This document shows positions 17,612 through 57,349 of a DNA stretch of 64,000 bases, one piece after another. Source of the stretch: Phycisphaerae bacterium (GTDB lineage: Bacteria; Planctomycetota; Phycisphaerae; UBA1845); assembly GCA_963666835.2 (NCBI GenBank), contig CAXXGO010000003.1:681980-745979 (forward strand), read 5' to 3'. The position numbers and the translations under genes were made by a program. The stretch's first letter is position 1, and each line of letters opens with the position of its first letter. The notes under the pieces are model-generated. The model ran no database searches and was not told the origin of the DNA. It saw nothing but the letters and a program-made list of their open reading frames with translations.

Positions 17612-17624
17612 GAGATAACCTCCG

Positions 17625-18137: not shown

Positions 18138-18183
18138 TCCGCGTGCGTTTCGTCTTTTGAAACCCAAGCGAGCCGGGTACGTC

Positions 18184-19547: not shown

Positions 19548-19561
19548 TAGGAGTTGCGACG

Positions 19562-20414: not shown

Positions 20415-20437
20415 TCCGCGGGCAGAGGAGTTCGGGG

Positions 20438-21280
20438 ATGATCACCGAGGTCAGAGACCTAACCAGGCAGGATTACGAACTATTCCGCAAACTGGTCTAC
20501 GAGAAAAGCGGGATCAACCTCGGCGATCAGAAGATGCAGCTCGTTCGGGCCCGCCTCGGGAAGCGTGTGCGCCAGGACGGGTTCCCCTCTTTTCGCGCCT
20601 ACTATGAGCACGTCGCCAACGACCCTACCGGGGTGGAGCTGAGCGAGCTGCTGGATGCCATCTCCACCAACACCACTCATCTGTTTCGAGAGCCGAAGCA
20701 CTTCGAGTTTCTTCACGCTCAACTCACCCAATGGGCCTCCGACAGCAAATGGCGACATCAACATCGCACGGTGAGAATCTGGAGTGCCGCGTGCTCAAGC
20801 GGAGAAGAACCTCACTCCATCGCGATGACTGCATTCGATGCCCTCGGCAAATACCCCAATCTCGAACTCAGAATTCTGGCAACTGACATCTCGTCTCCGA
20901 TGCTCACCCGTGCCCAACGCGCCGTTTATGACATGCATCGTGTCGGAACCGTACCGCGTGAGTACCAACTCCGTTTTCTCAAGAAAGTCGTGGTGGACGG
21001 TCAACAGTGTCTGCAACTCGCTCCCGAATTGCGCCGGCTTATCAAGGTCACCCGGTTCAACTTGATGAACAAGACCTTCCCATTCCGGAATCGGTTCGAT
21101 ATAATATTTTGCCGAAACGTAATGATCTATTTTGACCGCCCCACTCAAGAGACCCTGGTTAGGAAGCTGACTGCAAACCTGCACGAGGACGGCGTTCTGC
21201 TGATCGGCCACTCCGAAAGCCTGACCAACCTCAAACATGAACTGGGCTACGTCCAACCGACGATATATCGCAAACAGTAG
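20438..21280 (+). CDS. cheR: Chemotaxis methyltransferase CheR
   Basis: STNTTHLFRE..HF, RIWSAACSSGEEP, ILATDIS, IFCRNVMIYF, GHSESL. Confidence 0.96.
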   Translation: MITEVRDLTRQDYELFRKLVYEKSGINLGDQKMQLVRARLGKRVRQDGFPSFRAYYEHVANDPTGVELSELLDAISTNTTHLFREPKHFEFLHAQLTQWASDSKWRHQHRTVRIWSAACSSGEEPHSIAMTAFDALGKYPNLELRILATDISSPMLTRAQRAVYDMHRVGTVPREYQLRFLKKVVVDGQQCLQLAPELRRLIKVTRFNLMNKTFPFRNRFDIIFCRNVMIYFDRPTQETLVRKLTANLHEDGVLLIGHSESLTNLKHELGYVQPTIYRKQ

Positions 21281-21342
21281 ACCGCAGTGCGCCAGACGAA
21301 CGCAACACGGTGATCATTCGTGTATGACTACTGAGGTTCAGA

Positions 21343-22428
21343 GTGAAGGCCCGCAATCCCATCAAGGTTCTGATTGTCGACGACTCGCTCGTGGTGCGGA
21401 AAATTCTCACCAAGGTCCTCAATAACGAAGCCGATATCGAAGTCGTCGGGGGCGCCCCAGACCCCTTCTTTGCCCGTGAGCTGATCATCTGCCATCGTCC
21501 GGACGTGATTATCCTCGACATCATCATGCCGCGGATGGACGGAATCACCTTCCTCAAAAAGTTGAAAGCCCACTATCCCGTTCCGGTCATCATCTGCAGC
21601 GGAGTGGCGCCGGCCAACAGTGCCCGAGCGTTGGAGGCTCTCGAAGCCGGGGCGATAGACGTGGTAGCCAAACCCAGTTGCGGCGGACCGGACGCCCTCC
21701 AGCAACTCGGCGAGGATCTCGCCGAGAAGATCCGGGCGGCCCACATAGCCCTGCCCGCCGCCCGCGCACCTGCTCCGCGACTGGTGACGCCACCGCGGCG
21801 GTTTCGTGACACGGGATTGGATCCGAACCACACGCTCGTTGTTATCGGCGCTTCGACCGGCGGCACCGAGGCGATAAACGAGTTACTCTCAAACGTACCC
21901 GATGACTTTCCCCCCGTCGCCATGGTTCAGCACATGCCCGCCGGGTTCACCAAGTCGTTCGCCGAACGCCTCGACCGCTTCAGCAGGCTGCAGGTCACCG
22001 AGGCGGTGGACGGTGACCATCTTATATCCGGGCGAGCGTTTCTGGCGCGCGGCGGAATTCAAATGAGCGTCACGCCCGTGGGCCAGCGTTGGCGAATCTG
22101 CTATGGTGATAGCGAGCTTGTGAACCGACACTGCCCCAGTGTTGGCGTCCTCTTCAACTCCGTCGCCCATTACGCCCGCAGCCGCGCCGTCGGCGTTCTG
22201 CTCACCGGCATGGGCGCCGACGGAGCGGACGGCCTGCTCGCCATGCGCCAAGCCGGAGCAATCACCATCGCCCAGAATCCAGAAAGTTGCGTGGTCTACG
22301 GCATGCCCAAGGCCGCAGTTGACAACGGTGCGGCACAACACCTCGCCCCGCCCGCGGCAATCCCCAACCTCATCCTGCGTGAACTCCGTAAGCGCAAAGC
22401 CGCCCGACCCTCGGCCTGCTCTTCTTGA
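21343..22428 (+). CDS. cheB: Chemotaxis methylesterase CheB
   Basis: Receiver domain plus GASTGG, VQHMP, HCPSV, LTGMGADGA, VVYGMP. Confidence 0.96.
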   Translation: MKARNPIKVLIVDDSLVVRKILTKVLNNEADIEVVGGAPDPFFARELIICHRPDVIILDIIMPRMDGITFLKKLKAHYPVPVIICSGVAPANSARALEALEAGAIDVVAKPSCGGPDALQQLGEDLAEKIRAAHIALPAARAPAPRLVTPPRRFRDTGLDPNHTLVVIGASTGGTEAINELLSNVPDDFPPVAMVQHMPAGFTKSFAERLDRFSRLQVTEAVDGDHLISGRAFLARGGIQMSVTPVGQRWRICYGDSELVNRHCPSVGVLFNSVAHYARSRAVGVLLTGMGADGADGLLAMRQAGAITIAQNPESCVVYGMPKAAVDNGAAQHLAPPAAIPNLILRELRKRKAARPSACSS

Positions 22429-22545: not shown

Positions 22546-23700
22546 CTACGACTTCTGCGCAACCGGCTGGTGCGGCAGACCAACGGCAAAAAGACCGATC
22601 CGCTTCTCGCCCACGGTATTGCTCACAAACACGAAGTAGTCTGCCTTGAACCCGGGTGGAACCAAGGCGACCAGCCGCGCCGGAAGCTCCCGCGCCACCG
22701 CCACACCGGTCGGCAAAGGCGTCCCCCCCAGATCATTGCCCGGCCCGCCGAACAACATGAGCAACCGCCCATTGCGGTCAAAGAGGTGGACATATCCGAA
22801 TGAGCAATCCGCAACGAAAACAACTCCATCCGGACCAACGTCCAGATGCTTGGGTGCACCCAAGTCGCCATAGCGATTACCCGGCCGCCCGACGGCTCTG
22901 ACGAATCCGTGATCGCGGCCTAGCACCTGGATTCGCCCGTTCAACATATCCGACACGAACAGATTCCCATCATCATCCCCGGCCAAGCCGATCGGAAAGT
23001 AGAACCGCCCCGGCTCACTCCCCACTCCGCCGATGGCCTCCAGATAGGTGCCGTCCGCCATAGAAAACGCCCCGATCTGATGGGCGGCAACGTCGGCAAC
23101 GAACAGCTTCCCCGCAACAACCGCGACGGCTACCGGCTGATATTCACCCTCTTCCGAGCGCCGGAATCGAAGCCGGGCCTGCCCCGCAGAGTCAAAAGAC
23201 ACGACTTCCGCTCGCCCGGTATCGGCTACATAGATGGTCCCGCCTTCGTCGACGGCAACCGCCACCGGCTTTGCCAACACAACGTCACCGCGCCCCCCAA
23301 TTCGGGAACCCTTACCCGCCGCCAGATCCCAATCGTGAACAACGTTGAGCCCCGTATCACAGATGTAGAGGTGCCCGTCGGCATAGGCGACACCTGCAGG
23401 CGTAGCGACATACGGACCGGCGGATCGGCCACGGAAGAGCTCCGTCCAACTACCGCGGCGCGGAGCAATGTCCGCGAGACTATTAAACGACTTCAAGTGA
23501 ACGACATGCGGAACCGCCGGCGGGGGCGGAAAATAGACGGGATCCGCCTTGGGCGCAGTAGAGGCACACCCCAACGGAAGCGCCCCCACCAGCAACAGGA
23601 CGGCCAACAGCGCGCAGCCGCATCTCGCGGTCGTAACCGCATCGCCGCAGGCCCTGATACCAAGTGCGCGGCGAATCACTTCTTGTGGCAGACCAGACAC
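22546..23700 (-). CDS. NHL-repeat beta-propeller lipoprotein (true start probably slightly downstream)
   Basis: Lipobox PLGC; six NHL-like repeats (P.GVA..LYICDT, GRFYFPIGLA, DLGAPKHLDV). Confidence 0.88.
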   Translation of the reverse strand: MSGLPQEVIRRALGIRACGDAVTTARCGCALLAVLLLVGALPLGCASTAPKADPVYFPPPPAVPHVVHLKSFNSLADIAPRRGSWTELFRGRSAGPYVATPAGVAYADGHLYICDTGLNVVHDWDLAAGKGSRIGGRGDVVLAKPVAVAVDEGGTIYVADTGRAEVVSFDSAGQARLRFRRSEEGEYQPVAVAVVAGKLFVADVAAHQIGAFSMADGTYLEAIGGVGSEPGRFYFPIGLAGDDDGNLFVSDMLNGRIQVLGRDHGFVRAVGRPGNRYGDLGAPKHLDVGPDGVVFVADCSFGYVHLFDRNGRLLMLFGGPGNDLGGTPLPTGVAVARELPARLVALVPPGFKADYFVFVSNTVGEKRIGLFAVGLPHQPVAQKS

Positions 23701-24260
23701 AGCGCGCTACGCCCGTTGCTGGTAACGAGCATGTGCTCTTCACCCGACATGTCGTGCGGATCATGACACGAACTACACTCGACCCGGTTCTCCGGAAGCG
23801 TTACGGTACCTGTGGCGACAACACTCGTAATCGGCCGGTACCCCTTATCGAACTGGGGGTACTCAACGCCGACGGGATGATCGCTGCGCTGATGGCCGCC
23901 GGCAAACACCCCCGAGTGCTGCCGATTGGCAAATCTCTCTTTGGTCTGATCACTTACGCTATCCTTGGCGATCGTCCCGTCGTGACACCGTAGGCAGACA
24001 CTGGTCCCTTCACCCGCGCGCCGCGTTCCGTTCAGCGGCGACCCAAAAACGCGGTTGAGGTCGGCCTTGGCATCCCACAGCGGAGCAGCCTCCGGCGGCT
24101 CGGAGCGCTGCGGCCCGTGGCACGCACTACACCCGTCTCCGCCCGCCCATTCGGCGTTGCTGAAATCGTGCTTAGATCCCTTGACGTCACCCCAAGCCCA
24201 TCCGCCGAGGATTGCCAGAACCAAAACAACCGCAACGCTAGTGACTCTCGTTCTTGTCAT
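23676..24260 (-). CDS. Tetraheme cytochrome c, OmcE-like
   Basis: Signal peptide; CSACH, CLRCH, CSSCH, CLVCH; motif order SKHD..PLW..CHDG..SDHPV..VEC..CHDPH..SALCLVCHKK. Confidence 0.9.
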   Translation of the reverse strand: MTRTRVTSVAVVLVLAILGGWAWGDVKGSKHDFSNAEWAGGDGCSACHGPQRSEPPEAAPLWDAKADLNRVFGSPLNGTRRAGEGTSVCLRCHDGTIAKDSVSDQTKERFANRQHSGVFAGGHQRSDHPVGVEYPQFDKGYRPITSVVATGTVTLPENRVECSSCHDPHDMSGEEHMLVTSNGRSALCLVCHKK

Positions 24261-26044
24261 CGGCTTACTCCCCGCGATCGGGATCTACTCGCTCCGGCGG
24301 CCGTCGCATTGGCGTACGGGAAATTGACGTGCGGGAATCCGTGACACGTCATCGTACACGTACCCGAGAACCGCCCGGTGTCTACATACTCCACTCGTCG
24401 CCCCGTCGAAGTATCCGCAGGGGTCACGACCGCCAAATCGAAATTGAGCAGGTGGCTGTGATTCGTGGCGTTGCCTTGCCCTCGGTACACGCCGTGAGGA
24501 TCGTGACAAACGACGCACGGGGTACGAATATCCACAATATGCCGCCGGTGCCGCGAGAAACTCTCGTCATTCAGAATACTCTGGCGATCATGGCATCCAT
24601 AGCATAGTGCATAGGAGTCGGCGCTCTCCGACGTGAAATCAGCCGTATCGAGATTACGCACAAGCAAGCCATCATTCAACGAGCCGTGGGGACCGTTTGC
24701 CCCGGAGCCTCCCGCCGAACGAGCATTGTCACTGTTGTGGCAATCCGTACACGTAATCACGCTGCCCGCATTCAACGGCGAGAGCAAACTGGGCACCTCG
24801 GAATTGCGCCGCGGACCGGCTACAGGATGGAACGACGGATTTGACGTTTGAAACTCGAATCGCACGTTTGTTTGACTTACCTGCCGGGAAGTTCCCAGCC
24901 GCGGCCGCAACGCGCTGTCCCCGTGGCACTTGAGGCAAATCTCGTAGAGATAATCGGCACGCTCCGTCTCGCGGCCGGAGATAGTCACTCCGGATACGTG
25001 CAGATTCGGTCCCTTGACCGTCTGCCCGAGAGTCCCGCGGACTACCCCCACCCGATTCGCCTGGGCCGCGTGCGGATTGTGGCAATCTACGCACTCCACG
25101 TGACGCCTCATGGTAAAAGGCGTCTCCGCAGCATCATGCACGCCCGTGCGCCAGCGCGGGTCGTGCCCCGAGCGTTTCCGGATGTCTGCCGCGATATTGA
25201 ACGAAGCTACCGCCCCGCTGTGGCAATTCAGGCAGTTATCTTCCTCGGCAGTATGCCGCAGCAACCGCTCCGCCTCGGGAGCCGAATGAATCTTATGGCA
25301 AACCATGCAGCCGTTATCGCGAACAGTGCCGTATTTCAGACGTTCCCGGGCATCCACTGCCCGCCCGGTCGTGCGTTTGCGGCTGGTGGTATGTGAGGCG
25401 CGGTACCATCCGTCAAGATCATGGCAGGTCACGCAAATCGCCGACATCTGGTCGGACACCCGCAGAAAATCGCCCAGCGCGTTGTTGTGCGGATCGTGGC
25501 ACGTGGTGCAATGCACTTCCCCGTGCGGCCCCATGGGCATATCCCGCGACACCACCTCCGGTGGACGCACCTGACGATCCGAGTTGCTCAACGCCCGATC
25601 GTAATGGAACCCGATCGGGTGATCGTCAGACAGATCGCCGGTCAGATCGGCGCTGCCGGGTGGAATCGTCCGCGCGGTCATCACCATCGGCTCCGTCACC
25701 GAAAGCGAGAGCAGACTGCCCAGGGCCATGGAACCGTCGTGGCAGCTCAGACACATCTTCGACGGCCCGGAGGGCTGATCGATCCGGGCATCCGTCGTCG
25801 AACTATCGTAGATCCGATAGTGAGTACGCGGATTCTCCCGGTTCCACAACGGAGTCTGCGGAGCGGCGTTGTGCGGCGTGTGGCAAAAGATACAAACTTC
25901 GTCTTCCCCGATCGCTCGAATCGGTCCCGGTCCGCGGACCGAGAGATCATGTTTCGAGTTGACGATCGATTCATCGCCGAACGCGACCACCGAAACGGTC
26001 GCAAGCACAACACTGCCGGCAAGCTGAACGCGTCGCATCCTCAT
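24257..26044 (-). CDS. Dodecaheme cytochrome c with an N-terminal OmcE-like module
   Basis: Signal peptide; 11 CxxCH (CIFCH, CLSCH, CTTCH, CVTCH, CMVCH, CLNCH, CVDCH, CLKCH, CTDCH, CYGCH, CVVCH) plus one CxxxCH (CTMTCH). Confidence 0.93.
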   Translation of the reverse strand: MRMRRVQLAGSVVLATVSVVAFGDESIVNSKHDLSVRGPGPIRAIGEDEVCIFCHTPHNAAPQTPLWNRENPRTHYRIYDSSTTDARIDQPSGPSKMCLSCHDGSMALGSLLSLSVTEPMVMTARTIPPGSADLTGDLSDDHPIGFHYDRALSNSDRQVRPPEVVSRDMPMGPHGEVHCTTCHDPHNNALGDFLRVSDQMSAICVTCHDLDGWYRASHTTSRKRTTGRAVDARERLKYGTVRDNGCMVCHKIHSAPEAERLLRHTAEEDNCLNCHSGAVASFNIAADIRKRSGHDPRWRTGVHDAAETPFTMRRHVECVDCHNPHAAQANRVGVVRGTLGQTVKGPNLHVSGVTISGRETERADYLYEICLKCHGDSALRPRLGTSRQVSQTNVRFEFQTSNPSFHPVAGPRRNSEVPSLLSPLNAGSVITCTDCHNSDNARSAGGSGANGPHGSLNDGLLVRNLDTADFTSESADSYALCYGCHDRQSILNDESFSRHRRHIVDIRTPCVVCHDPHGVYRGQGNATNHSHLLNFDLAVVTPADTSTGRRVEYVDTGRFSGTCTMTCHGFPHVNFPYANATAAGASRSRSRGVSR

Positions 26045-27066
26045 AGCGCGGCCCTCACATACTCGAATACCTGAATGCGGCGATTGCCCCCGTCCGCCAC
26101 CCAGATTCGGTCATCCTTGCCAACTGCGATACCGGTCGGTAGCCAGAACTCGCCCGGATCTTGGCCTTCTTCACCAAATGCCATCAACAAACGCCCCTCG
26201 CCGTCAAACACCTGAACATTCTCGAACTGCGCGTCGACCACGTAGAGGTGACCGTCACCGTCGACGGCCACACCCTTGGGCAAAGCGAAATCGCCCGCTC
26301 CGTCCCCCTTCTGCCCGATACTACGAACAAAGGAGCCGTCCGGGCCCAACAGTTGCACGCGGCAATTCCCACTGTCCGTAACCAGCAACCGACCATCGTG
26401 CCAACACACGTGCGTGGGATAGTTGAACTGTCCGGGACCCGTGCCTCGGCTCCCGAAACTATCCACCAGCTTCCCGTCCGGCGTAAACACCGCCAGGCAG
26501 TGCGTGCCCCCGCTTACGACATAAAGCAAGTCGCGCTCCGCTACGTACGCGATGCCGACCGGGCGGCGCAGAACATCGCCGCCGAATCTTCGCCGGAAAC
26601 TCCCCTGCCGATCAAACTCAATCACTTCGCCCCGTTGAGCATCCGTTACGAAAAGACGATCCTGCGCCCAAGTCACACCGAAAGGACTCCCCAACCGCTC
26701 ATCGCCGAACCCGGCAATACGCACATGCGTCCGGGCGTCGAGATCCAGCACGTGCACCGTCGCCTGCCCCCCGTCCGCAACCGCCAAGAGTGCCGGATCA
26801 CGGAAGGCAACTCCCTGCGGCCGCGAGAAAGACAGCGGAGGCCGCGGACCGCGCAAGGCCGCCCGTAGCGCCTCGCCCCCGGATCGCCCCGCCTTGAGGT
26901 CTGCGCTGCCCGACAGGGTTCCGACCAACCTTACTCGGGCAACGTCCGGCGGTGCCGGCCAAACCTTCGCCGGCACAATCGGCTCGAACAGCACCCCCTG
27001 AGGGCGAGCACACGCCCCGAGAAGCGCCGCCCCCAACAACGAAGCGAGCCCTGCTATCGCCCGCAC
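26041..27066 (-). CDS. NHL-repeat beta-propeller lipoprotein
   Basis: Probable GTG start at 27066, lipobox LGAC; GQFNYPTHV, GDFALPKGVAVD, GEFWLPTGIAV, NRRIQVF. Confidence 0.92.
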   Translation of the reverse strand: MRAIAGLASLLGAALLGACARPQGVLFEPIVPAKVWPAPPDVARVRLVGTLSGSADLKAGRSGGEALRAALRGPRPPLSFSRPQGVAFRDPALLAVADGGQATVHVLDLDARTHVRIAGFGDERLGSPFGVTWAQDRLFVTDAQRGEVIEFDRQGSFRRRFGGDVLRRPVGIAYVAERDLLYVVSGGTHCLAVFTPDGKLVDSFGSRGTGPGQFNYPTHVCWHDGRLLVTDSGNCRVQLLGPDGSFVRSIGQKGDGAGDFALPKGVAVDGDGHLYVVDAQFENVQVFDGEGRLLMAFGEEGQDPGEFWLPTGIAVGKDDRIWVADGGNRRIQVFEYVRAAL

Positions 27067-27070
27067 GTCG

Positions 27071-29131
27071 TTACCACTTGGCCAGCACATTCGGAATGTC
27101 CCTGCGCACGCGGAAATAAACGCCGAAATCCTCTTCTTCGGACTCCGGCAACCCCAAACGATCGTACTCTACGGTCAACTCGCCCGAGAAATCGCCAACG
27201 ATGTACTCCAGACCGGCGGTCACATCCCAGGAATTCGTGTCCCCGGCAACAGAATCATCCTCAAACCGGTACGCGATCCGCTCAACGGTTGACAGCGATT
27301 CCGTCAGACGCCAACGATGATCCAACTCCACATCCACCATCGTTACGTCACGACCGAAGGAATCGTCCTCGAAGCACATCCGCGAAAACCGGCTCGACAG
27401 ATCCAAGTTATGGTCCGGGCTGCGTACAACATGGAGCAAGCCGTTGACGTGTACCGCATCGTACGGATCCACCGTATCGTCAAAGATCTCGAATTCTGCC
27501 CCGAGACTGAACCGCTCCTGCTCGTAGTTAACCCCCAGCCGGTGATGATTCGTTCGATCCACCCACCGGGCAAAGCCGGTCGAACCCTCGTTCTCCTGGT
27601 TGCGATAGGACCACCGGTAGTAGGGTGTCAAGCCGAAGGTGAACCGCTGCTCGACGTTAAAATCGACGCGCATCGTGTCGATCTTCCCGTCGGCCGGGGT
27701 GCGATACTCATAGTCGATCAGCACCGTGTCTCCGTCGGCAATCTGCCCGGTACGAAGCCGCAACAGGCGCGTGACATTACCTTGCCGGCTGACCACGTAA
27801 TCCACGCCGGGGCGCAGGTAGCGCCGATTGGTGGCATCGGTGACCAGAATGGTCGCCTGTACCACATTGCGATTTCGCAGAATGATGGACAACGGATCAC
27901 GGAACGTGCCCGACTCGTCGAGCACAATCCGGCGGCCGTTGTCCCCGCTGATATCTTCGGTGTCGTACGCCAGAGCCAGATTGGCATTGAGATGGCCAAA
28001 CCGGTTCCGGCGGTTGTACTGCCAATCGACCGCCGCTCCGTACTGAACGGTCTCTACGTCGTCTTCGATGTCCTCATAAAGCCCGAAGACATCCACTGTC
28101 GTCGTGAGATTGCTGTACATCTGATGCACAAGCTGGAAGTCCGCCCGGTGGGTGTCGATGTCCAGTTCTTCGTAGCGCTCCCGGTTGTGCTGGTACGTGT
28201 ACATCGTCTGCAGGGAATCGCTGTGGTGCAGAGTCAGTTGCTGGCTCGACTCGTACAGATCGCGTGCGAAGTCGCCGCTCTCCTCCTGCCAACGGACGAA
28301 GCTGCGCAGACTGTGCTGAGACTCCGAGCCGAACTCCCAATCGTGCGTCAACTTGACGAGATCGCGCGTCGTCTCGAACGCGTCATCCAGCCCTTGATAC
28401 TCCTGCTTCGTCTCCCCGTGCTCGTACGAAAGTGAAAACTTCCGGTGCTCCGATACCAGCCAATCCGCAGCCCAATGGAACGTGCTTTCCGTGTAGTGCT
28501 CGTCGTCCCCGTCGTACCAGTTTCCGGTTCGATCCGTCTCGAGGTAATCGTAAGACAACTCCATCGGAATCTTGTCGTGGGCGAAAACCCAGTTGGTTCC
28601 GAAGCCCGTCCGTTCCTCGTCGAGCGTCGGCTGGAACCGGCGATTGATGCGGTCATCCCGGCGGAGTGCGTACAACGACCCCGACAGAATCTTGCCCTGC
28701 AGGAAGTTGACCCGCGCGTCGTAATGCACCAGATAACCGTTGTCGTCATCCGTGCGCGTGCCGTACCCGCTGATCTTCTCTTCGTAACGATCTTGCGTCA
28801 GAGCAAAGCTGAAATCACCGGCAAAAGTGATGAACCCCGGATCCAGCACCGTACCTCCCAGCTTCAAACCGACCCGCTCTTCGAAGCCGTAATCGGTGTT
28901 CTTCTGGGTGCGCTTCTGCCGGGCGCCCGTAAGGTCCCGCGAGGTTACCATCGTTCGCGTATACTCGCCTTTGAACTCAAGATAGGCATCGAGGTGATCG
29001 AGGCTAAGATAATCCTGCCGCGCGGCCGACGAGTCCTCGTCATCCGCAACCGCAGCGTTTCCGAGAGCCGCGACCCCAACGAACGCCACCCCGATACATC
29101 CAAGGCGAAAGGTGCTCACCGCGCCAACCAT
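27071..29131 (-). CDS. Large outer-membrane beta-barrel (porin) protein
   Basis: Signal peptide; 686 aa with alternating aromatic/polar strands rich in Y, D and R; no Cys motifs; near-terminal strand FGVYFRVRRD; first gene of a multiheme operon. Confidence 0.75.
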   Translation of the reverse strand: MVGAVSTFRLGCIGVAFVGVAALGNAAVADDEDSSAARQDYLSLDHLDAYLEFKGEYTRTMVTSRDLTGARQKRTQKNTDYGFEERVGLKLGGTVLDPGFITFAGDFSFALTQDRYEEKISGYGTRTDDDNGYLVHYDARVNFLQGKILSGSLYALRRDDRINRRFQPTLDEERTGFGTNWVFAHDKIPMELSYDYLETDRTGNWYDGDDEHYTESTFHWAADWLVSEHRKFSLSYEHGETKQEYQGLDDAFETTRDLVKLTHDWEFGSESQHSLRSFVRWQEESGDFARDLYESSQQLTLHHSDSLQTMYTYQHNRERYEELDIDTHRADFQLVHQMYSNLTTTVDVFGLYEDIEDDVETVQYGAAVDWQYNRRNRFGHLNANLALAYDTEDISGDNGRRIVLDESGTFRDPLSIILRNRNVVQATILVTDATNRRYLRPGVDYVVSRQGNVTRLLRLRTGQIADGDTVLIDYEYRTPADGKIDTMRVDFNVEQRFTFGLTPYYRWSYRNQENEGSTGFARWVDRTNHHRLGVNYEQERFSLGAEFEIFDDTVDPYDAVHVNGLLHVVRSPDHNLDLSSRFSRMCFEDDSFGRDVTMVDVELDHRWRLTESLSTVERIAYRFEDDSVAGDTNSWDVTAGLEYIVGDFSGELTVEYDRLGLPESEEEDFGVYFRVRRDIPNVLAKW

Positions 29132-29680
29132 GTTACACCCGCCCTCTGGTTTGTTTCGACCGTCAGGTCTCTTGCCATGTACTCAGCGTCGCTCGCCTCC
29201 CGTACGGCGAGGCCAGTCCAATAGTCACGCGACGATATTAACGATGCCGCTACGCATGGCAACCGCCGGAACCAGGTTCATTGCCGTTGCTCCAGGTCGG
29301 ACCGTTCGCGCTATCAACCCGTTATATCGATAAGACTGCAGTCCGCCGGCCAGCCAACTTGACCGCCGCTGCAGAGCGGTGTGTCCAGCCGACTGCCGGT
29401 CCGATCTGCGTAGATCGGCCTACCGCATCCGAGATTCCACGCCCCGTCATGCCGACGCAACCTATTATCTGACAAGGGCCTTCGCGACATTTCACACCCC
29501 ACGCGGATGCTGCTGGGCTGAACTTGCCGAACCCAAGCCGGGCAACCACGCCCGGCCGCGCCGAGTCTACCGCCTGCGCGAACTTGGACCGGCGGCATTG
29601 AACTTCTGCCGTTGGAGTGTATTGTACCGCGGATAGTGTGGACCTTGGAGTAAGAAGCTGCTCTCAGCAGAGGCGCGGTC

Positions 29681-30253
29681 ATGCGGAAGCTCGGATTGGC
29701 TGTATCAATCGTGTTAATCGTAAGTCTCGGCTGCTCCCAGGCGGCCCGCGACAGTTTCAAACACTGGTTCTTCGAAATCCCCGAACAATCGGAGGTAACT
29801 TCCGAGGCACCTGCCGCCGAACCGGAGAGTTCTTCGGCAAAGGCGGAGACGGCGCCCCATCAGGTCGAATCGAAGTACCTTTCGGTCCACGCCCCTTACG
29901 CGGATCGACAGTGCAATCGCTGCCATGACCCCGAGCAGCGCATGGCCGTGCGCGATGACCTTGAGGGTTGCTGCCTTTCGTGCCACCGGCAGTACTTCGA
30001 CGAGGATACTATCGAGCATTCCCCGGTCGCCGACCGAGAGTGCCTGACATGCCACGACTTGCATCGGAGCACGCAACTCAGCCTGCTCAAGGGCTCCGTC
30101 CTTGAATTGTGCGCTCCGTGCCATGACGAGCCGAGTGAGTTGAGTGAGGACGCGCACGGCGGCGAAGGCGTGGAGAACTGTGTTCGTTGTCATGATCCCC
30201 ATTTCGGGGAAGCACCGTATTTAAAGCCCGGAGTAGAGGGTTCAGAGGACTAA
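29681..30253 (+). CDS. Pentaheme cytochrome c lipoprotein
   Basis: Lipobox SLGC; CNRCH, CLSCH, CLTCH, CAPCH, CVRCH with H.P distal-ligand motifs. Confidence 0.92.
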   Translation: MRKLGLAVSIVLIVSLGCSQAARDSFKHWFFEIPEQSEVTSEAPAAEPESSSAKAETAPHQVESKYLSVHAPYADRQCNRCHDPEQRMAVRDDLEGCCLSCHRQYFDEDTIEHSPVADRECLTCHDLHRSTQLSLLKGSVLELCAPCHDEPSELSEDAHGGEGVENCVRCHDPHFGEAPYLKPGVEGSED

Positions 30254-30442
30254 CGACGCGCAAGGGATCGAGGCCGATTGGGTCGGCCTGTGGCGTACCC
30301 GTGGCGGGTCGCGCCGGAGACGGTGAGTAAGAGCAGGGCGCTTGCCGTTTCGCCGAGGACATTCTCGCGAAGGATTACGACCGCTCTTGGGCATGGCTAG
30401 ACCCCAAGCCAAGCGGTCGAGCAGAAGATCTAAGGAGTCATC

Positions 30443-30922
30443 ATGTATAAGGTAGCCAAGTGGTCGACGACGTTCATCGCGGTGATCCTGTTCCTGGGAG
30501 TATCCGGTTGCGGCACTAACGTCCAAGATATTCTGTACCAAACCGGCTCGTCCGTGGGCCGATCCTTCTACGACATGCTCTTGACCGAGATGGTTAACGA
30601 CATCGCAGACGCATTCGACACCACCGCCGATGATGCCGCGGACGACGAGGACGCCGACGATGACGGGGAAGACCCCGCGGATGACGGCGCGGATGATGAT
30701 GCCGACGACGATGGGGATGACGGGGCCGCTCCCGACGGAGCGACGCTGTACGCGGACAATTGCGCGGCATGCCACGGCGACGACGGCGCCTCCGGATTCG
30801 GACCCGATGTCACTGGGTTGTCAGCAGACGATATGGCCGCCGGCCTGGAATCCGGAACCCACGCGGGAATCAGCCTGACCGACGACGAGGTCGCGGCAAT
30901 CGCGGAGCTGATGGGCGGCTAG
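30443..30922 (+). CDS. Monoheme cytochrome c lipoprotein with Asp-rich linker
   Basis: AAGGAG RBS; lipobox VSGC; ~40-aa D/A/G-rich tract; DGATLYADNCAACHG. Confidence 0.88.
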   Translation: MYKVAKWSTTFIAVILFLGVSGCGTNVQDILYQTGSSVGRSFYDMLLTEMVNDIADAFDTTADDAADDEDADDDGEDPADDGADDDADDDGDDGAAPDGATLYADNCAACHGDDGASGFGPDVTGLSADDMAAGLESGTHAGISLTDDEVAAIAELMGG

Positions 30923-45228: not shown

Positions 45229-45959
45229 CCTCGTTTTCGGTTAATTGCGTTGCTCGATCCTGCTTCAGAAAGGCACCGCAACGGCATTTTGAAACAGGCT
45301 GGCATCGCGATGTGGACCCGCTGCGCGTTCCCCGGAATTCTGTGTCCATGCAGAGTTTTCGATGTCGACCTTCCGCATCAGAACCACGCATCTGCCCATG
45401 GGTTATTGGCGTTTAACGTCGCGTATGCGGGTTCAGGCGGCAAATGGTGCCGTTGGTTAGAGAATCACATGCGGAGAATACGGAGAATTTTGCATTAGTC
45501 GCAGAATGTCCAAGGAGTTACGTCAGAAGCATTGTATAATATATTGCAGGAAACGCGGATCGTGTGACCGATTAGCTTGAACAACCCAAACACATAGATA
45601 CCTGCATCCGGCGCTCCACGTTGGATTATTAAACCGCGGCACACGATCCCCCTGGGTTTTATATATGGATTGTGACCAAACATACTACCAGTCATTTCTG
45701 AGGCCCGCAGATCCTCACCGTTTCGCGACCGAGATCGTCGCCTTGCCACGCCAAAAAGAAACGATCTACAGGGCGAACACGAATGACGAGATAGATACTG
45801 GCTACAAACTCGGCTGGATGGGGCAGCGGATGTCGCTCAAGCGACTGGACTCGCATGGATGGAGCAACGGCAGGCAAACCGGGACCCCCTACAACGCCTT
45901 CAGAAACTCGATTCAGCGCAGCGACCATTCCAGGATCGCCAAGAAGTGGTTCTTCTCGC

Positions 45960-47217
45960 CCACTTGATGGCAACGATGTTCTCCGCTCCTGCCGATGTTC
46001 GGAACAAGTCACGAATCCCATCGAAGACGACGCTGCCGTCCAGTCCGGCAGCTTTCCGCAAACGCCTGATCTTGTCTGTGATCTTGCCAATCTTCAACGG
46101 ACGGTTGAGCCTGCCCTTCTGGTCCGTCTTGGTCGTCGTGAACAGCAGTGGAGACTGGTTGGTCTTGAAATGCGGCGTCGCCATGTACGCCTTGATGGCA
46201 TCAGCTGTCCGCTGCCAGACGGCTGCAACTCGCGTAACGCCGGTTTTGGTTCGATGGCTCTGAAAGACCAAGTCCTGTAGATCAAACTCCGACGTCTCCA
46301 GGGCTGCCATCTCGGACGGGTGCAGGGCGAGATTCAGGCTCACAATCAGGATTGCTTTCCACATCAGGTCCTCGTTGGCTTCGCATTGCTCCAGCAGTCT
46401 CAGATAGGCTGCCTTCTTCATCGGCCTGGGCGACGGCTGCTTCTGCGTCTCCCAGGAGCAGATACGTCTGATCTCCGATCGCAGGTCCTCGATCAGCACC
46501 CGATGGTGCCTGAAGATGTCTGCCCCGTACTTGAGGATCGACTGCGTCGTGAGAATGACGTTCTTCTGGGTACGCGGCTCCCCTGCCTCTCGGACAGCCT
46601 TGTTGAATCGCTGAAGGTGCGTTGAATCGATGTCGTCGATGACGTTGACGCCAACGGCTTCTGCAAAACAGCTTCCAACACCACTCGGCATCCAGATACT
46701 GACGGTTGTGCTTGAAGGTTTTTCCCCGGATGTAGTTCTCGATGACATCGGTCAATGGTAGCGGCTTGGCGACGGGCGGAAGGCCCGTCAGGTTCTTCAA
46801 CTCCGGCACGCCAACCATATCCGCAAACTCGGCTCGCGTTGCCGGGTCGCTGAGCTGGTCTCGAAAGTAGGCTGCCATGTCCTCCTTGCCGACCTGGTAG
46901 ACATTCACCGCTCGCCCATCCTTGTCGAACGTCCCGATCACCGGAATCTCCTGACCGAATTCATCGTGGGCGGGGTGACGGGCAATCACCTCTACGTGAT
47001 CCTCAGGCTCCAGACCCCGCCATGCAGCATTCGTGCTCGTAGATAACCGCTCGTCTGAGGTAGGCGATCCCCTTCTTGCCATCCCGCCTGTAGTAGACTC
47101 GGTCCTTCTTGTTCTCGATGCGGTAGTAACGACCCGGATGACTTGTGGTGACGAAGCCCAGCAACCGGGCTGATCGGTGTCCGGATGGCGGACGAATTCG
47201 GACAGGTCTCCGTCCAC
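45960..47217 (-). pseudogene. Tyrosine recombinase/integrase, frameshifted and apparently C-terminally truncated
   Basis: Stitched across ~4 frameshifts: ..WKAILIVSLNLALHPSEMAAL, HRTKTGVTRVAAVW, FDGIRDLFRT. No (L/M)GH..Y segment follows AIKWA. Confidence 0.75.
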
Positions 47218-47719
47218 CCCCCACGCTTGCCGGTTCTGAGTAACACCCAGGTCCTGCGCAGATTGCGCTTGCTCGTAACCCTAGCAGACAGCCGGGGTTA
47301 CGGCAAAAAACCGGCCAAAGTCAAACCTGCGCGGCGCAAGTCGAAACGGGGGGTGAGTCAAGGTTCTGCGCTGGTTGCGTTTGCGCGTAAGTCGTTGTGG
47401 ATCCGTGGGGTTACGGCGCGAGCGCAGAACCTGGAGAAAGCGCAATGCGCAAGGGCAAACGCAAAGTTCGGGGACTCCGGTTATGCTTGCCGACACAGAC
47501 GCGGCTGGGTACTCTGGGCGAGCCATGAAAGGAGGTGATGCTCTTGAAAAGCATATTGAGCATCGCCGAAAAACAACCCCATCGCGGGGATAACCACGAC
47601 CCTCCGGCGGAAGCGCGGGCGAGTAAGCGCAAGAGGGAACTAAGACGTGGTATCGCAGCATGGCAAGGCAAGGGCCCTGGCCACCTCGTCGTAGCCAGGG
47701 CAGTTCTTTGCGCCAGACT

Positions 47720-49020
47720 TCACCGGTACCGGTCTTCCGGGTATGGGGAGAGTGGGCAAGTCAGCGGATCGTGCGGGGCGTCATCGGGGACGGGGGAGGC
47801 GGGTCCAGGCAAGGACTGAAGATGGGCGTCTCTCAGGCTATACCACTTCTTGTAGTCCGGCTCGTCGACGGCACCGTGATCCAGAGCCCATTGCACGAAT
47901 TCCTCGTTGCTCCTGAGGCGATGGACGTTTGCCGACGCGACCGTTCTGGGGAATCGACTCACGCCGGTGAGGTTCGCCCGGCCGAGGTTCGCCCAGGCGA
48001 GGTCCGCCCAGGCGAGGTCCGCCCCGGTGAGGTCCACGTCGAAGAGTTCCGCCCCGGTGAGGTTCGCCCCGGTGAGGTTCGCCCCGGTGAGGTTCGCCGA
48101 GAAGAGTACCGCCACCCGTGAGGTTCGCCTCCACGAGTTTCGCATTCATGAGTCCTCGCACCGATGAGGTTCGCCCCGGTGAGGTTCGCCCCGGCCGAGG
48201 GTTCGCCCCGGTGAGTTTCGCCGTGAAGAGTTTCGCCCCGGTGAGTTTCGCCCTGGTGAGTTTCGCCGTGACGAGTTTCGCCTGGGTGAGGTTCGCCTCG
48301 GTGAGGTTCGCCTCGGTGAGGTTCGCGCTGGCGAGGTTGGCATTGGTCAATGCCGCGCCGTCTAGTCGGGCTTCGCTGAAGTCAACGTTGCTGAAGTCCT
48401 CGTCCGCAATCGCGACATCGGTGAGCCAAGCTCTGCGGAGGTCGATCTTGCCGTCGACAAGAAGTGGCTGCACTTCGCACTCGCCATCCGCACAATCCTC
48501 GATGGCCTCGCGTTCGCCTCTGAGGTGCTCCCGGACTGCTTGGGAGCGGATTGGAACCACGTGCTTTGGGATTGTCTCACCGTTCTCATCCGTCGTGGAT
48601 TCGTAGAGGATCTGCAGGAGTTCGGTGCGGCGTTCGCGTTGGAGGCGGCCCGTCTTGGCGGTTGAATTGGTCGCGGGCCAGGGCGAGATGGTCCCGAGAG
48701 AGTCTGGCTTGCTCGGCAAACTGCGTTTGCGTCTCGGTGAACTCCATGCGAGCCTGTTTGAGCTGCTCTTGGGTTTGCCAGCCTTGCACAAGCAGCACCA
48801 CGGTGCCCACGACCACGCAGGTGATTTCGATGGTGTGGCGGGATGGCGGCCAGCGCCACCAAGATATGGGGGCAACGACGGGCGGGGCTGACTGCGAGCC
48901 GTCGCCCTGCTTGCCGGAAGCGAGGGCATTAGGGTCTTGAGGCGGGATGGAGTCCGACTGCCTCTTGGCCCCCTTGCCCTGCTTAGGTTCCTTACGCGGC
49001 TTGGGGCATTTGTTCCCCAT
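47720..49020 (-). pseudogene. Membrane-anchored pentapeptide-repeat protein (several frameshifts)
   Basis: One TM segment, coiled coil, RRTELLQILY, then A(N/D/K)LXX repeats spread across ORFs 48586-49086, 47838-48929 and 47720-48145. Confidence 0.7.
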
Positions 49021-49141
49021 GGCTATCTCCGTTGGTGACTTGGGGGGGCTGTTCCGGGGTCGCCACTTATAGGGCAACTCCAACATCCACAGTGTAGCAG
49101 AGGAACCGGGAGGGGGCGATTATACGTTTGGGGGAGGATTG

Positions 49142-50448
49142 TCATCGGGGGAGGCGCTCCGGGATGGAGAGTTTGCGGAGGCCGTTGCGGCGGTTGTTGC
49201 GGAGTTCGTGGAGGAGCATTTGGGTCTTGCGGGTGTTGGCCTGTTGGGGGGTCGCGCGGGGGTGGTCTTTGAGCCAGGCGTCAACCTTGAAGTCGATGTT
49301 GTGGCGGGTCGTTTCGGGCATGGCGGACCACCAGACGGGGAAGGTGGCGACGGCGCGGGTGCGGGCGCCACGATCGCGGCGGGCGTCGAGGAGCATTGAC
49401 CGGTAACCCTCCGGGAGCGTGGCGAGGGGACTCGGCGAGGGTCTGGGGCTCTTGGTTGCACGCCAGGGCGGGCGGGTCGGAAAGGGTCGACAGGGCCTGG
49501 GCGTCGGCGAGGAAGGCGGGGGACGTGGCGCGGGGCCCCTTGCGGGGTTTGCTTGGGCAGGCTGGAAGCCTGCGCTACGGGGGCCGGGTCGGCCGGCGGG
49601 GCGAGGGAGCGGAGGGCGGCGAGGTTGGCGCGGTTGCGGGTCTGGCTCCGGCGGGCTTTTGGGGCAGCGGGGACGGCCGCGGAACCGGGATATGAGCGTA
49701 CGGCGCGAAGGTGGTCGGCGTCGTTGCACGCCCGGATCAACCAGCGTTCGAAGTCGTATCGAACCCACCTCGAGAAGGCTTTGAACGGCATTCGAGAGCG
49801 GTCGCAAGGCCACGCGAAATAGCAGTCGATGGCGCCGATGACGTTGGCGCGATCGTGGGTCGCCAGGAGCTTCAGAGCGGTCGACATCATGCGGGTGTCG
49901 ACCTTGGGGCAGTTGGCGATACGGAAGCACCACCAGGCGCAGACTAAGGCGGCGTCGGATGCGGCAGCGGCGGTGCAAGAGAGCGTGCCGCGCGGGGGGT
50001 TTGGTGTAGTGGTCGCGCAGGGCGGCGGTGCCGCCCAGGTCTTGGTTGTTGGCCCATACCCGCACCGAGCTGGGCGATACGCTGAACTCGGCGGCGACGG
50101 TGGCTAGGTGGGTCCGCTGGGGCCGCGGACGGGTCGGCGGCGGTGAGCTGGCGGAGACGTTCTACCGCCGCTTGGCGGCGCTCTTGTCGAGTGAGGGTTG
50201 CGGGGTCGGGCGTGGGGGATGGTGCGTCCGCCCCCCTTGAAAGGGGGGGCTCGGGCACGGGGGGGAGTTGTTGGCGGAGCGCCGTCGAAAGGTGGAGCGG
50301 GGTCGGTGCGGAGGTAGTTGAGGGGGACGGGGTCGCGATTGTACGCGGCCGGGAACTCGATGCGGCCGGTGACGCGCGGACCCCTACGGGTCGCGTGGAT
50401 GGTGACGCCGGCGTGTTCGAGGGCACGGGTTGGGGTGGATGAAGACAT
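49142..50448 (-). pseudogene. Proline-rich HTH-containing protein (frameshifted)
   Basis: ATG overlaps the upstream stop (TGATG at 50450-50446); HTH-like ATVAAEFSVSPSSVRVW; continues in ORFs 49120-49890 and 49142-50065. Confidence 0.45.
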
Positions 50449-51473
50449 CAGCTTCGCCGGGCGACCTTGTTTGCGAGGATCGAAATGAGAAGACCTAGGT
50501 TTACATAACCGAGGATTACCTCCAGAGTAACCCAGAATTCGCCCCAACCTGTCGCGGGGGTGACATCCCCGAAGCCCAGCGTCGTAAAGGTAACAATGGA
50601 GTAGTAGAAGGGCGTGTACGGCGTGTTGGCACTTCCCGACATATTGAGGAGATCAGGGGTTGTATTGGAAGATGATCCCGAAGATCGACGCGAGAACGAA
50701 ACCCGCGAAACCAACTCGGAAGAGGCTCCGGCCGCAGTCGGTGAGTAAGTGCCATAGACCATACAACACGTGCCGGTGCCACCAGGACTGGTCACGGAAT
50801 GCTTGGATCCAGTCCTGGTCCTGAGCGTCGCGTTTGAAGAGCGGATTGCCCCCGGCAGGCGTCAAGACGGATACCGAGGCAATGCATGGTCCGGGCCTTG
50901 TATCTGACACGAAACACGTTCGCGTCTGTCAGATCCGCCCCCCTGGAGGACTGCACTGGTCAGGTTGGCGAATCCCAGATCAGCCGCCTTGAGGTTTGCC
51001 CATGCGAGTTTTGCCTGCCCCAAGTGCGAGAACCTCAGATCGGCCCCCTGCAGGTTGGCGTACCTCAGGTCGGCCCGGAGAAGGCCAGCTCCGAGCAGAT
51101 GGGCTCCCGATAGATCGGCTTTCCACAGTGTGGCGTCGTCCAGGCGGATCCCTGCTATCGAGATCTTCTTCGCATAGGGACCCGGATCCTCTGCCTCCGA
51201 CAGGGTCCCCAGCAAGACAGCACCCCTAAGGTCGGCACAACTGAGATCAGCCTTGCTGAGGTTGGTCCCCGCCAAGTTGGCCTCCTTCAATTGGGCGTGT
51301 GATAGGTTAGCCTCGCTCAGGTCGAGTCCCCGTAGGTCGGCGCCAACGAGATCCAGAATAACGTCAGGCTTGAGTGTTGCGTGGACACTCCCGTTTGCGT
51401 GGTTCTTCACCCTCCAGGCGGCGATGGCTTCGGTTCCTTGTTTGACGAGTGCAACGTGCTCTACATTGGCCAT
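50448..51473 (-). CDS. Pentapeptide-repeat protein fused to a 2-TM potassium-channel pore (frameshifted in this assembly)
   Basis: GGAGG RBS; MANVEHVALVKQG; pentapeptide repeats; TM1 RVGFAGFVLASIFGIIF; pore YYSIVTFTTLGFGDVTP; TM2 EVILGYVNLGLLISILANK. Confidence 0.82.
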
Positions 51474-51505
51474 GGGGACCTCCGTATCGGGATGGGGTGA
51501 GGGTG

Positions 51506-52571
51506 TCACGCATCGGGGGACTCGGGTTCGTCATCGCGGTTAAGGTCGCGCAACAGGTCGGCGAAAGCCCTATCGAAGCCTCCCGGCTGTCTCCAGTTGG
51601 AGAAGTCGGGGATGTGGAACTCGCGGACCTTCTCGGCGAGATCCACGCCGGTGTCGGCGTCCAAACAGGTCCAGGTTCTGATCTCTTCAAACGGGACCAG
51701 ACGGATGGGAAAGAGGACGATTCGGCCGGATTTGCGTTGCTTGGCGAGGGCGAGTTTTGATCTCGCGAACCACCCAATTGCTAGCCATGCTCTCTTTGGA
51801 GAGGACCAAGAGAAGGCGGTCGCGGCGGCTGATGGCCTCTTGGAGCTGGGAGTCGACCTTAACGGCCGCCGCGCATATCTTCCGGGGCAAACCAGACAGG
51901 GAGCTTTGCGGCAGTGAGGCACGCATGGAGGCGGCGGGCGAAGTCATCGTTGAAGCTGCTGTAGCTGATGAAACAGGAAGAGAACTGACTCGGCGACATG
52001 GACTGGATGATGGCGGGGGAGATGGGTGATGAGCTCTTCGGGGACGCCGCAACCACGTAGAAAGGAATCGGGGATGGTGCCTTGTGATCTGAATATGGTG
52101 TCCACGCCGATTGTTGAGGGGCCGACGTGGGACACCGAGTCAAGGCCCGAAGCCCAGAGAAGGTCGACATCGGCAAAGACAGTATAGCCAATCGTCGCGT
52201 CTTCGAACAGGCTCCCGCGCAAGTTCGCCGTGTTCAGGTCGGCCGCTACCCAGGAAGGCCTGCTCCAAGTTGGCCTCCCCCGAGGGTTGGAGTCCGCCAG
52301 GTTGGCGCCCACGAGGTTGGCCAACACGAGGTCGGATTCCCTCAGGTTGGCCGACATAAGGTTGGCCTCCGGTAACCTGGCCCGCGTCAGGATGGCCCCC
52401 GTCAAGTTGGCGCCCTCTAGGTCGGCGGGGGCTAGTTGCGCCCCCGGCAGCTCAACACGATTCAGCGGGGCACCTGTCAGATCTAGGACTATGTCGGGGT
52501 TCTGCTCTCGCCACTTGTTGAAAGCTCCCGGTGCCTTGTTTGACGAGTTTGACGTGATCTTCATTGGCCAT
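51506..52571 (-). CDS. Pentapeptide-repeat protein fused to a TIR domain (frameshifted in this assembly)
   Basis: GGAGG RBS; MANEDHVKLVKQG; pentapeptide repeats; SCFISYSS..DDFARRL, VWFAPEDMRGG, LLLVLSKESMASNWVVREI, LFPIRL. Confidence 0.85.
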
Positions 52572-52672
52572 GGGGACCTCCGTAGGGATAGCCGGGGAAA
52601 CGGGGAACCAGATGGAGGGGGATGATACCACACGTTAGGAAGGTTACAAAACTCGGGGGGAATGCGCGCACG

Positions 52673-53560
52673 TTATGACCCTGTGGCGGCTTTGACGAGG
52701 GCCAGGAAGTGCTTGGGGCCGGTTGGCGTTCGGGTGAATTCCGGCCAGAGCATTACGGCGGGGGTCTTGGCCGAGGGGAGGTATAGCTCCGGGAACCGGT
52801 CGTAATACGCGCGGTAAAGGTGGGCGCCGAGCCAGCGGGAGGTGTGCAGGGAATAGTCGTAGGTGACCTGGCGGACGCCGGCGTCGTCGTAATACCAAGG
52901 ACCAACCCAGCGAGATGAACGGGACGACCTGGCAATTGTGCTTGATGGCCTCGGCGACGGTGCGCTGGATGATGAGCTGATTGAGTGTGGTACCGAGCGC
53001 CGGGTAGTACGCCGAGCAGCTCATCAGGCCGTCGTGTTTGACGGCGACCGGGGTCCAGGGGGAGGTGCGCCAGCCGCCCTTGCAAGGGTGCGGCTCTTGG
53101 GCGCCTTGGTCATACCACATTACCCGGCAGTCCGGAGCGACCTTATGGGCGATGTTGTACAGCGCGTCCAGTTTGGCGATGACCAACCGCGCGGGTGACG
53201 GCGCCCCGCGACCATGATCTCGTGATCGAAGATGACGACGCGCAGGCAGGTGCCGTGCTCCTCAGCGATGGCCTGCACTTCGGTCAGACGCTCGGCCACC
53301 AGGTTGCATTCGTGGGCGTAAGACTCGCCCAGGTCAGGTCGCGAAAGCGTCACGGGCCGTCGGGTGGTAGACCGGGAGAGCTTTGTCCGGGGCCGGAGGC
53401 GGTGGGCCACGCTGGGAGTAGTAGTGTTGCTCACTGTATGGGGAGTACACGGCCGTCAGGTCGGCGTCATACTTCTGGCATAACTCGGCGCAGAGGTGCC
53501 AGTGCTCAAGCGGGCTCCATTGGGCGTCTCAATTCCTACCCGCACGCGGTCTACAACTTC
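52673..53560 (-). pseudogene. Fragmented hypothetical protein (possibly TIM-barrel/glycosidase-like)
   Basis: Protein-like segments in successive frames (VVIFDHE, KLDALYNIAHKVAPDCRVMWY, VVPFISLG, YDYSLHTSRWLG); start not identifiable. Confidence 0.4.
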
Positions 53561-55973: not shown

Positions 55974-56546
55974 TCAGGTGCTGGACCCCAACCGCCCCCG
56001 CACCTCCATCAGCGCGAACCCCAGCAAATTCAACCCCCGCCACCGTGCCGGGTTTGCCGCATTTTCATTGTTCCGGCCCATGCCGATGCCCCAAATCCGA
56101 TCGCGGGGTGCCGCTTCCACCAGAACTGTTGACCCCGTCTCGACGAGGAACCGACCCATCTCGGCGTTCTGCGTGAACTTGGCCAGATTCCCGGCGACCA
56201 CGATCTCGAACCGGTTCTCGGCCCACTTCTCATTGATGAACCCTCGAACCTTCCGCCCCAGCGCCTTCGCCTCCTTCGGGGTCTCGGCCACGATGATCTT
56301 GTCGAAGAACTCGTCGTCCGAGAAGAGCCGCGACTTCGCTGCCATCATGTAGTGTTCGGTCGTCGCGTATCGCACTCCGTCGATCTCGAACGGGGCGGGG
56401 AACCAGTTACTCAAGCAGGACTGATCGACGCGGCCGTCCTCCTTGGGCGTGTGGCCCCAGAAGAAGAGGTAATCGGGGGTGGCGCCGCGATCGATGATCT
56501 CGACGAGGTCGGCGACGGATCGGGCTTGGGGTGGGGTGTGCGTCAT
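55974..56546 (-). CDS. NADAR-family (YbiA/DUF1768) N-glycosidase
   Basis: FFWGH, CLSNWF, TEHYMMA.K..LF.D, K.LGRKV, KFTQN, LVEAAPRDRIWGIG, WRGLNLLGFALMEVR. Confidence 0.93.
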   Translation of the reverse strand: MTHTPPQARSVADLVEIIDRGATPDYLFFWGHTPKEDGRVDQSCLSNWFPAPFEIDGVRYATTEHYMMAAKSRLFSDDEFFDKIIVAETPKEAKALGRKVRGFINEKWAENRFEIVVAGNLAKFTQNAEMGRFLVETGSTVLVEAAPRDRIWGIGMGRNNENAANPARWRGLNLLGFALMEVRGRLGSST

Positions 56547-56587
56547 TTTGGATGGTAGATGCATTGGGCAGGCTGACGGCTTGGACT

Positions 56588-57349
56588 TCAAGAGTCTCCG
56601 CGAGCGGCCCGGTGAGATTGTTCGTTCGTAATACGCTCAATTTCATCCGTCGATAGCTGCCGATAGTAGCCCTTTTTGATCATCTGCCTGACGAAGGTCG
56701 TCGATGAGCGAATGCAAAACTGCCTCGCGACTTCTTCGGTGATGGTCTGCACGTTTGAAACCGAATCAAGATTGCGGAGATGAGCGGATATGATGTCGCT
56801 GACCGAGGAATCCTCGGATACGCCGCGGTCTTCGTCGCCGCGCGCAGAAGTATCGGAAAGTTTGAAGGCGGTGTTCAGTGTGGGCTCCGTGTGGATGCCG
56901 GTTTCGTCGTTGTCGCGAAATGAATGGCACGACCAGTTGACCCTACTATCGCCGTCGAGGCTGTGGTAGACGGCAACCTGGATTCGGAGAAATGCGGATC
57001 TTGTTCCGTTGAGAAGGTAGAGCCAGTACACCTCCTTGCCGCCGACCGTATCCAATCGAGCGCCATAGGTTAGTGTGAATCCGTGGCTCTCGGCTTCGGC
57101 AAGAAGCGGAACCACCTTGTCAAGAATATCCCTGGGAATATCGTCGGGATTGCTAATCCATCCCGGCTCGGCGTCGGACTCACCCCATATCGCGGGCAAG
57201 TGCAGCCCGCATATTCGTCGTAGCACGAGATAGCAGAACCCCGGTATACGCAAGATGAGAGGCAGCGATGCAAGGTCACTCCAAAGCGCCGCATGCGGAT
57301 ACCGCGAGTCATCGGGCGTGTAATATCGTCGCATCAATGTCCGTCTCAC
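56588..57349 (-). CDS. Hypothetical protein
   Basis: 253-aa ORF with lower GC than its neighbours; no motif recognised. Confidence 0.55.
   Translation of the reverse strand: MRRTLMRRYYTPDDSRYPHAALWSDLASLPLILRIPGFCYLVLRRICGLHLPAIWGESDAEPGWISNPDDIPRDILDKVVPLLAEAESHGFTLTYGARLDTVGGKEVYWLYLLNGTRSAFLRIQVAVYHSLDGDSRVNWSCHSFRDNDETGIHTEPTLNTAFKLSDTSARGDEDRGVSEDSSVSDIISAHLRNLDSVSNVQTITEEVARQFCIRSSTTFVRQMIKKGYYRQLSTDEIERITNEQSHRAARGDS

Follow-up and report, generated by a model that had tools for sequence, protein, structure and literature searches.

Adjacent pentapeptide-TIR and pentapeptide-channel genes in a Phycisphaerae bacterium: a possible case of effector swapping in a large modular protein family

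When a gene for a TIR domain protein and a gene for a membrane channel stand side by side and begin with the same stretch of DNA, do they form one dedicated defence system or are they two independent proteins with a common origin? The question is raised by a 64,000-nucleotide stretch of a Phycisphaerae genome (the window), for which a sequence-only reading had proposed a new TIR-signalling defence system. The coordinates confirm two neighbouring, co-oriented genes on the minus strand, 32 bp apart. The upstream gene (52571-51506) encodes a short N-terminal cap, pentapeptide repeats, a conserved linker and a TIR_2 domain, and by comparison with intact relatives would give a protein of about 352 residues if seven extra bases are assembly errors. 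The downstream gene (51473-50448) encodes a cap, pentapeptide repeats and a two-helix K+ channel pore, and relatives, together with the model of one of them, suggest a protein of about 340 residues if three extra bases are errors. Pfam detects pentapeptide repeats in both, and the paralogous N-terminus reported for the pair is a real shared 5' module; each gene has the order cap, repeats and C-terminal effector. The motifs are intact. The putative catalytic glutamate of the TIR domain (WVVREI; Glu codon 51764-51762, minus strand) is present, as it is in 23 of 24 aligned relatives, and the filter motif TTLGFGD lies at 50585-50565 on the same strand, with TFTTLGFGD found in 36 of 49 aligned relatives of the channel. 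Ion_trans_2 scores 42.6 bits in the channel gene against a cut-off of 22.5, and the elements of an Ion_trans_2 channel are all present: its TxGF/YGD filter and, in the model of a relative, a pore helix with two membrane helices. TIR_2 was matched by Pfam in two frame pieces of the TIR gene, under the cut-off because the gene is split by frameshifts. Upstream of the TIR gene a promoter-like TTGTAA-16-TATCAT (52622-52649, minus strand) is a weak candidate, being the sole match in 6.5 kb where 1.0 is expected by chance.

Both genes are interrupted by single-base shifts in the assembly, whereas open frames are long in the genes at 1-36 kb of this stretch. A single reading frame for the TIR gene needs the removal of seven net extra bases. 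One contig from run X3, at depth 2 and possibly from the source sample, spans 51464-52586 in 1116 nt with no substitutions and seven gaps; as it does not have the seven extra bases, the frameshifts of the TIR gene look like assembly errors. The channel gene has three breaks, of which only that at 50656 is corrected among the contig matches listed, and homologues suggest that the other two are errors as well. Both outputs, TIR and channel, look intact.

The structure models available for comparison are of relatives' proteins, not of the window's own. The modelled channel relative consists of a cap, a beta-helix, two membrane helices and a pore, and the sole listed structure to align with it over both beta-helix and pore is that of HalA (PDB 9NYI; NCBIfam model NF051894), reportedly the channel effector of Hailong in the work of Tan et al. 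in 2025. The two agree with a VIA-align Z of 12.0, although for a repeat fold such a value may partly reflect common parts (rmsd 5.1 over 245 aligned residues, model 46-324), and with a Foldseek E of 7.4e-5. The likeness, a beta-helix of pentapeptide repeats joined to a pore of two helices, is one of build: identity is only 9-10%, HalA was absent among the 60 matches listed in a PDB sequence search, and NF051894 gives 18 bits to an intact relative (P0029) and 12.5 to the window locus against a cut-off of 250. The window channel also has a canonical K+ filter, whereas HalA is reported to let Na+ flow in (PMC13434031). Hailong is described as a pentapeptide-channel protein together with a nucleotidyltransferase whose oligo(dA) holds the channel shut (PMC13586616, PMC13434031). 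HalB (NF051895) has zero matches in the window's own genome, which is 92% complete, and no NTase/HEPN family was found among the neighbours in the window (Pfam) or among 97 neighbours of channel relatives (E 1e-10). Membership of Hailong was rejected, as the channel fails the HalA model and HalB was not found. Judged from models and profile scores, the channel family is built like HalA yet is not a Hailong member, and HalA is an anti-phage precedent, one not named in the sequence-only reading, for the combination of pentapeptide repeats and a channel.

The modelled TIR relative comprises cap, beta-helix, linker and TIR domain, and its best TIR matches are 7uxu (E 2.9e-4), 4lzp, 8qlp and 8oz6, which are of the AbTir, BtpA and SPARTA types. 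TIR domains of these types are known NADases, and those of the AbTir type are switched on by clustering. With AbTir, BtpA and the SPARTA TIR-APAZ proteins the window protein shares a TIR_2 domain with its glutamate, that is, the TIR fold and catalytic residue of bacterial TIR NADases, as well as the best fold matches; it differs from them in the fusion, via the conserved linker, to a cap and pentapeptide repeats, and no solved structure or PADLOC model spans the whole fusion protein. The fold is nearest to the AbTir-type NADases, and destruction of NAD+ is the likely activity predicted from it.

A different activity would be required if the pair worked as a Thoeris-like relay, with a cyclic ADP-ribose-type signal made by the TIR opening the channel. 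Thoeris consists of a ThsB TIR and a ThsA effector (PMC11204291), and the window resembles it to the extent that a TIR gene with its catalytic glutamate retained adjoins a gene for a membrane protein that could be its effector. ThsB models also give weak matches in the TIRs of relatives, ThsB_TIR being under the Pfam cut-off in the window piece and over it at one related locus, L257. At L257, however, TIR_2 far outscores ThsB_TIR (85 against 33 bits), and in PADLOC the TIRs were matched only in part, with partial and weak ThsB models, and the channels had zero matches. No ThsA-type effector with a SLOG or Macro ligand-binding domain was found in the window locus by Pfam, by PADLOC or in the model of the channel relative, which has no nucleotide-binding domain, and the locus has no SIR2 effector. 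Moreover, 12 of the 13 channel loci found in other genomes of the order stand without a TIR neighbour; a conserved TIR-effector operon was not seen in the order, where one of 28 TIR loci and one of 13 channel loci are paired. The relay is very unlikely, and a conserved two-gene TIR-signalling system is not supported.

The cap and repeats that the two proteins share were taken in the sequence-only reading as a sensor module wired to two outputs. The shared module stands, but the cap is family-wide: matches to its profile come from 14,240 clusters (50% identity), and it carries varied C-terminal domains across the family. A cap specific to the window pair was rejected. Among the best 150 cap clusters, 78 under 170 aa were set aside; the 72 longer ones comprise 20 of TIR type, 14 whose C-terminal domain is Rossmann-like and unnamed, six channels and 32 others, CHAT, FRG and KAP included, shares that are biased toward TIR and channel because the profile was built from genes of these two kinds. 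The third frequent C-terminal domain, Rossmann-like and with no Pfam match, is found at L253:8524-9603, in P0150, P0191 and P0217 and in others, and at L253 it stands in tandem with a TIR fusion. Two accounts describe conflict systems that combine a constant module with TIR, caspase-like and NTPase domains that vary, pentapeptide repeats being among the variable parts (PMC7159879, PMC8195603). The present family is alike in joining one constant module to variable effectors and unlike in that the repeat module is itself the constant N-terminal part. No account of a cap-pentapeptide-TIR family or of a TIR-channel pair was found in the literature searched, which lay outside subscription papers and supplements. 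Among the TIR fusions of Acidobacteria a leader that is nearly identical and holds a -10-like hexamer recurs before genes with differing neighbours, in several copies per genome, some 40-80 nt ahead of position 6001 or of the gene start (L017, L019, L021, L023, L031, L032, L035, L048, L050, L057, L070, L081, L090); each of these fusions looks like a mobile one-gene unit that takes its promoter along. In related Acidobacteria TIR fusions, single or in tandem, also stand immediately after smpB (L026, L030, L043, L060, L077).

How the two window genes came to begin alike can be followed in their DNA. An identical 23-nt block covering ribosome-binding site and start lies at 52562-52584 and 51464-51486, as had been noted, and the 6.02-Mb genome holds no further copy when as many as four mismatches are allowed. 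It is part of a longer minus-strand repeat of 56 nt at 89% identity (52529-52584 at the TIR gene, with the ribosome-binding site and first codons; 51431-51486 at the channel gene), and DNA likeness between the genes is a matter of some 60 nt at their starts, not of the pentapeptide repeats. The start is locally copied: the two agree at 46 of 52 bases, where the best other start among 119 compared reaches 37 of 52. Outside the pair, the strict window-type start motif is confined to six TIR proteins, of which four belong to the clade of the window TIR, and the window channel therefore carries a TIR-type start. The pair at L257, in genome G460, has the reverse arrangement, in that its type of start is found elsewhere only on two channels and yet is present on the downstream TIR gene, whose likeness to the upstream gene spans about 225 bases, leader included. 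In both pairs, then, the downstream gene bears a copy of the start of the upstream gene, whereas a third pair, at L111, has no shared start. The copied starts of the window and G460 point to duplication and effector swapping, and we infer either that the upstream gene was duplicated with exchange of its 3' part or that gene conversion took place.

A dedicated system would be expected to keep its partners together. An order-wide survey of 279 genomes, the window's own and 278 others, by single-protein queries at E 1e-15 found the channel in 12 other genomes (13 loci) and the TIR in 20 others (28 loci), counts that miss some owing to the single-protein queries and incomplete genomes. Both fusions occur in three other genomes and are adjacent in one, G460. 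Beyond the order, no channel was found in 80 GTDB TIR loci (mostly Acidobacteria) or in seven viral TIR loci, and among 80 channel loci from metagenomes one, L111, has a TIR; many of these loci are short, with 1.3 kb on both sides in only 34 of 83. At L257 and L111 the order is channel then TIR, the reverse of the window. The three paired TIRs are polyphyletic, a one-clade topology being rejected (p-AU 3e-78) and the window TIR grouping with unpaired TIRs; the tree retains two long-branched rows, G485 and G504, that are probably slicing artefacts. In a quick channel tree the label 'paired' changes at least twice. Other tandems exist, TIR-TIR in six of 80 loci and channel-channel in one of 80, and mixed ones join a TIR to the unnamed domain (L253) or a capped membrane protein to a TIR (L267). 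The fusions themselves are common, with at least 574 confirmed matches for the TIR in GTDB genomes and at least 441 for the channel in metagenomes. The sequence-only reading had staked its proposal on a conserved pairing of individually uncommon fusions, and largely the opposite was found, although the pairing does recur at L111 and L257.

This recurrence gives some weight to a selected two-output module, in which the copied cap and repeats would let both proteins answer one phage cue, or assemble with each other, and NAD+ loss and ion flux would set in together. At least two and probably three independent TIR-channel adjacencies are known (window, L257, L111), two of the three with a shared start; the 32-bp spacing is compatible with one operon, and HalA offers a precedent. 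Adjacency in one of three other genomes holding both far exceeds what random placement would give, and there is a mild enrichment of co-occurrence (Fisher p about 0.045, with kin not independent). Set against this are the limitation of the DNA likeness to the start rather than the repeats, the differing gene order, the prevalence of single loci and the other mixed tandems, and we regard such a module as rather unlikely.

The surroundings of the pair speak less clearly. The TGA of the channel gene shares one base with the ATG of a frameshifted gene (49142-50448, minus strand), which had been called a helix-turn-helix (HTH) gene; the overlap is real but the HTH signal is weak, with no Pfam match in the window pieces and HTH_28 at E 2.6e-4, under the cut-off, in an intact homologue. 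In G005 a homologue has AAA_22 and GemA-like genes nearby but neither channel nor TIR, and the window gene was set aside as probably no part of the unit. An Atlas search for homologues returned viral leads only, at 0.76. REP-like short repeats lie within it at 49556-49582 and 50231-50265, with 61 and three genome matches at up to three mismatches. The third pentapeptide membrane protein said to follow is present (approximately 47720-49021, minus strand; a membrane helix, a coiled coil and C-terminal repeats), but it has another architecture and no cap and was likewise set aside. The supposed integrase-adjacent island needs qualification: a tyrosine integrase (45900-47217, minus strand, frameshifted in the assembly) does lie at the margin of a block that is lower in GC, at 56.6% against 63.6%, and carries Dam methylase and GP88 genes, but it is 3.2 kb away from the pair, in a variable region at 37-59 kb that also holds NADAR and Imm33; there is no tRNA within the window. 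Upstream of the integrase, a segment of about 240 bp (47235-47473) shows 74% identity to G000:C6:1577144-1577381 and is a possible element end. The NADAR gene (55974-56591, minus strand), 3.4 kb from the pair, matches PADLOC PDC-M42C at 147 bits. A frameshifted gene upstream of the TIR gene (52672-53560, minus strand) has no Pfam, PADLOC or NCBIfam match and a short DNA match in G035, and a multiheme cytochrome and NHL-repeat cluster (22549-30820, minus strand, and 14876-22425, plus strand) lies beside a chemotaxis operon.

The defence context of relatives is mixed: some lie in a defence or mobile setting, while housekeeping or signalling genes are frequent neighbours. For the TIR, 150 of 162 neighbours were scanned and 71 had a Pfam match, eight of them restriction, nuclease or toxin-like (with no background control); for the channel, 97 of 119 were scanned and 21 were two-component or sensor proteins. 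Channel fusions are coupled to response regulators or to large histidine kinases of the hybrid type at L118, L130, L153, L114, L115, L107 and others, and to an HDOD gene at L260 (G031). These signalling and HDOD neighbours, the housekeeping settings, the canonical K+ filter and the low HalA score would suit a pair with no defence role, comprising an ordinary regulated K+ channel and a stress or metabolic NADase brought together by near-neutral recombination among repeat genes. Such an origin sits poorly with the patchy, multi-copy distribution, with close relatives beside MmeI, STAND, Mrr or AbiJ genes (L011, L250, L251, L254) and with the conflict-type nature of the sister TIR, CHAT and KAP domains, and we think it unlikely. 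A role in defence is plausible, and likelier for the TIR than for the channel.

On balance we lean, with modest confidence, towards two stand-alone sensor-effector proteins, which local duplication with an exchange of 3' parts would have brought into tandem, rather than a dedicated two-gene defence system. The two would be members of one very large modular family built of a short helical cap, a pentapeptide beta-helix and a variable C-terminal domain. In the window the 5' segment of the upstream TIR gene would have been copied onto the 3' part of a channel gene, and in G460, conversely, a channel start onto a TIR gene. The beta-helix may be the sensing or gating part, and clustering would switch on the TIR NADase as in AbTir-type TIRs; once the repeat module is engaged, by a trigger that is possibly phage infection, the TIR would destroy NAD+ and the channel would pass K+, each acting alone. 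The size of the cap family, the prevalence of single loci, the other tandems, the rejection of one clade and the copied starts favour the stand-alone proteins; adjacency above random, enriched co-occurrence, the lack of a shared start at L111, the mixed defence context and the near absence from plasmids and phages (no channel on either, and one plasmid record for the TIR) count against them. As a tentative extension, cap and beta-helix might be an exchangeable immune sensor in a very large family whose effectors, among them TIR NADases, HalA-like K+ channels, the unnamed Rossmann domain and caspase-like domains, are swapped by recombination, mixed tandems wiring one trigger to two killing outputs without HalB or ThsA.

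A dedicated TIR-to-channel system does not hold up on present evidence. What the tandem would offer is a snapshot of effector swapping in a family of thousands of proteins, together with a second natural tandem in which the start of the downstream gene is that of the gene before it. Should the family prove defensive, the channel design of HalA would extend to HalB-free channels and TIR NADases would have a new type of sensor, and at this locus one could ask directly whether two outputs can be driven by a single repeat module.
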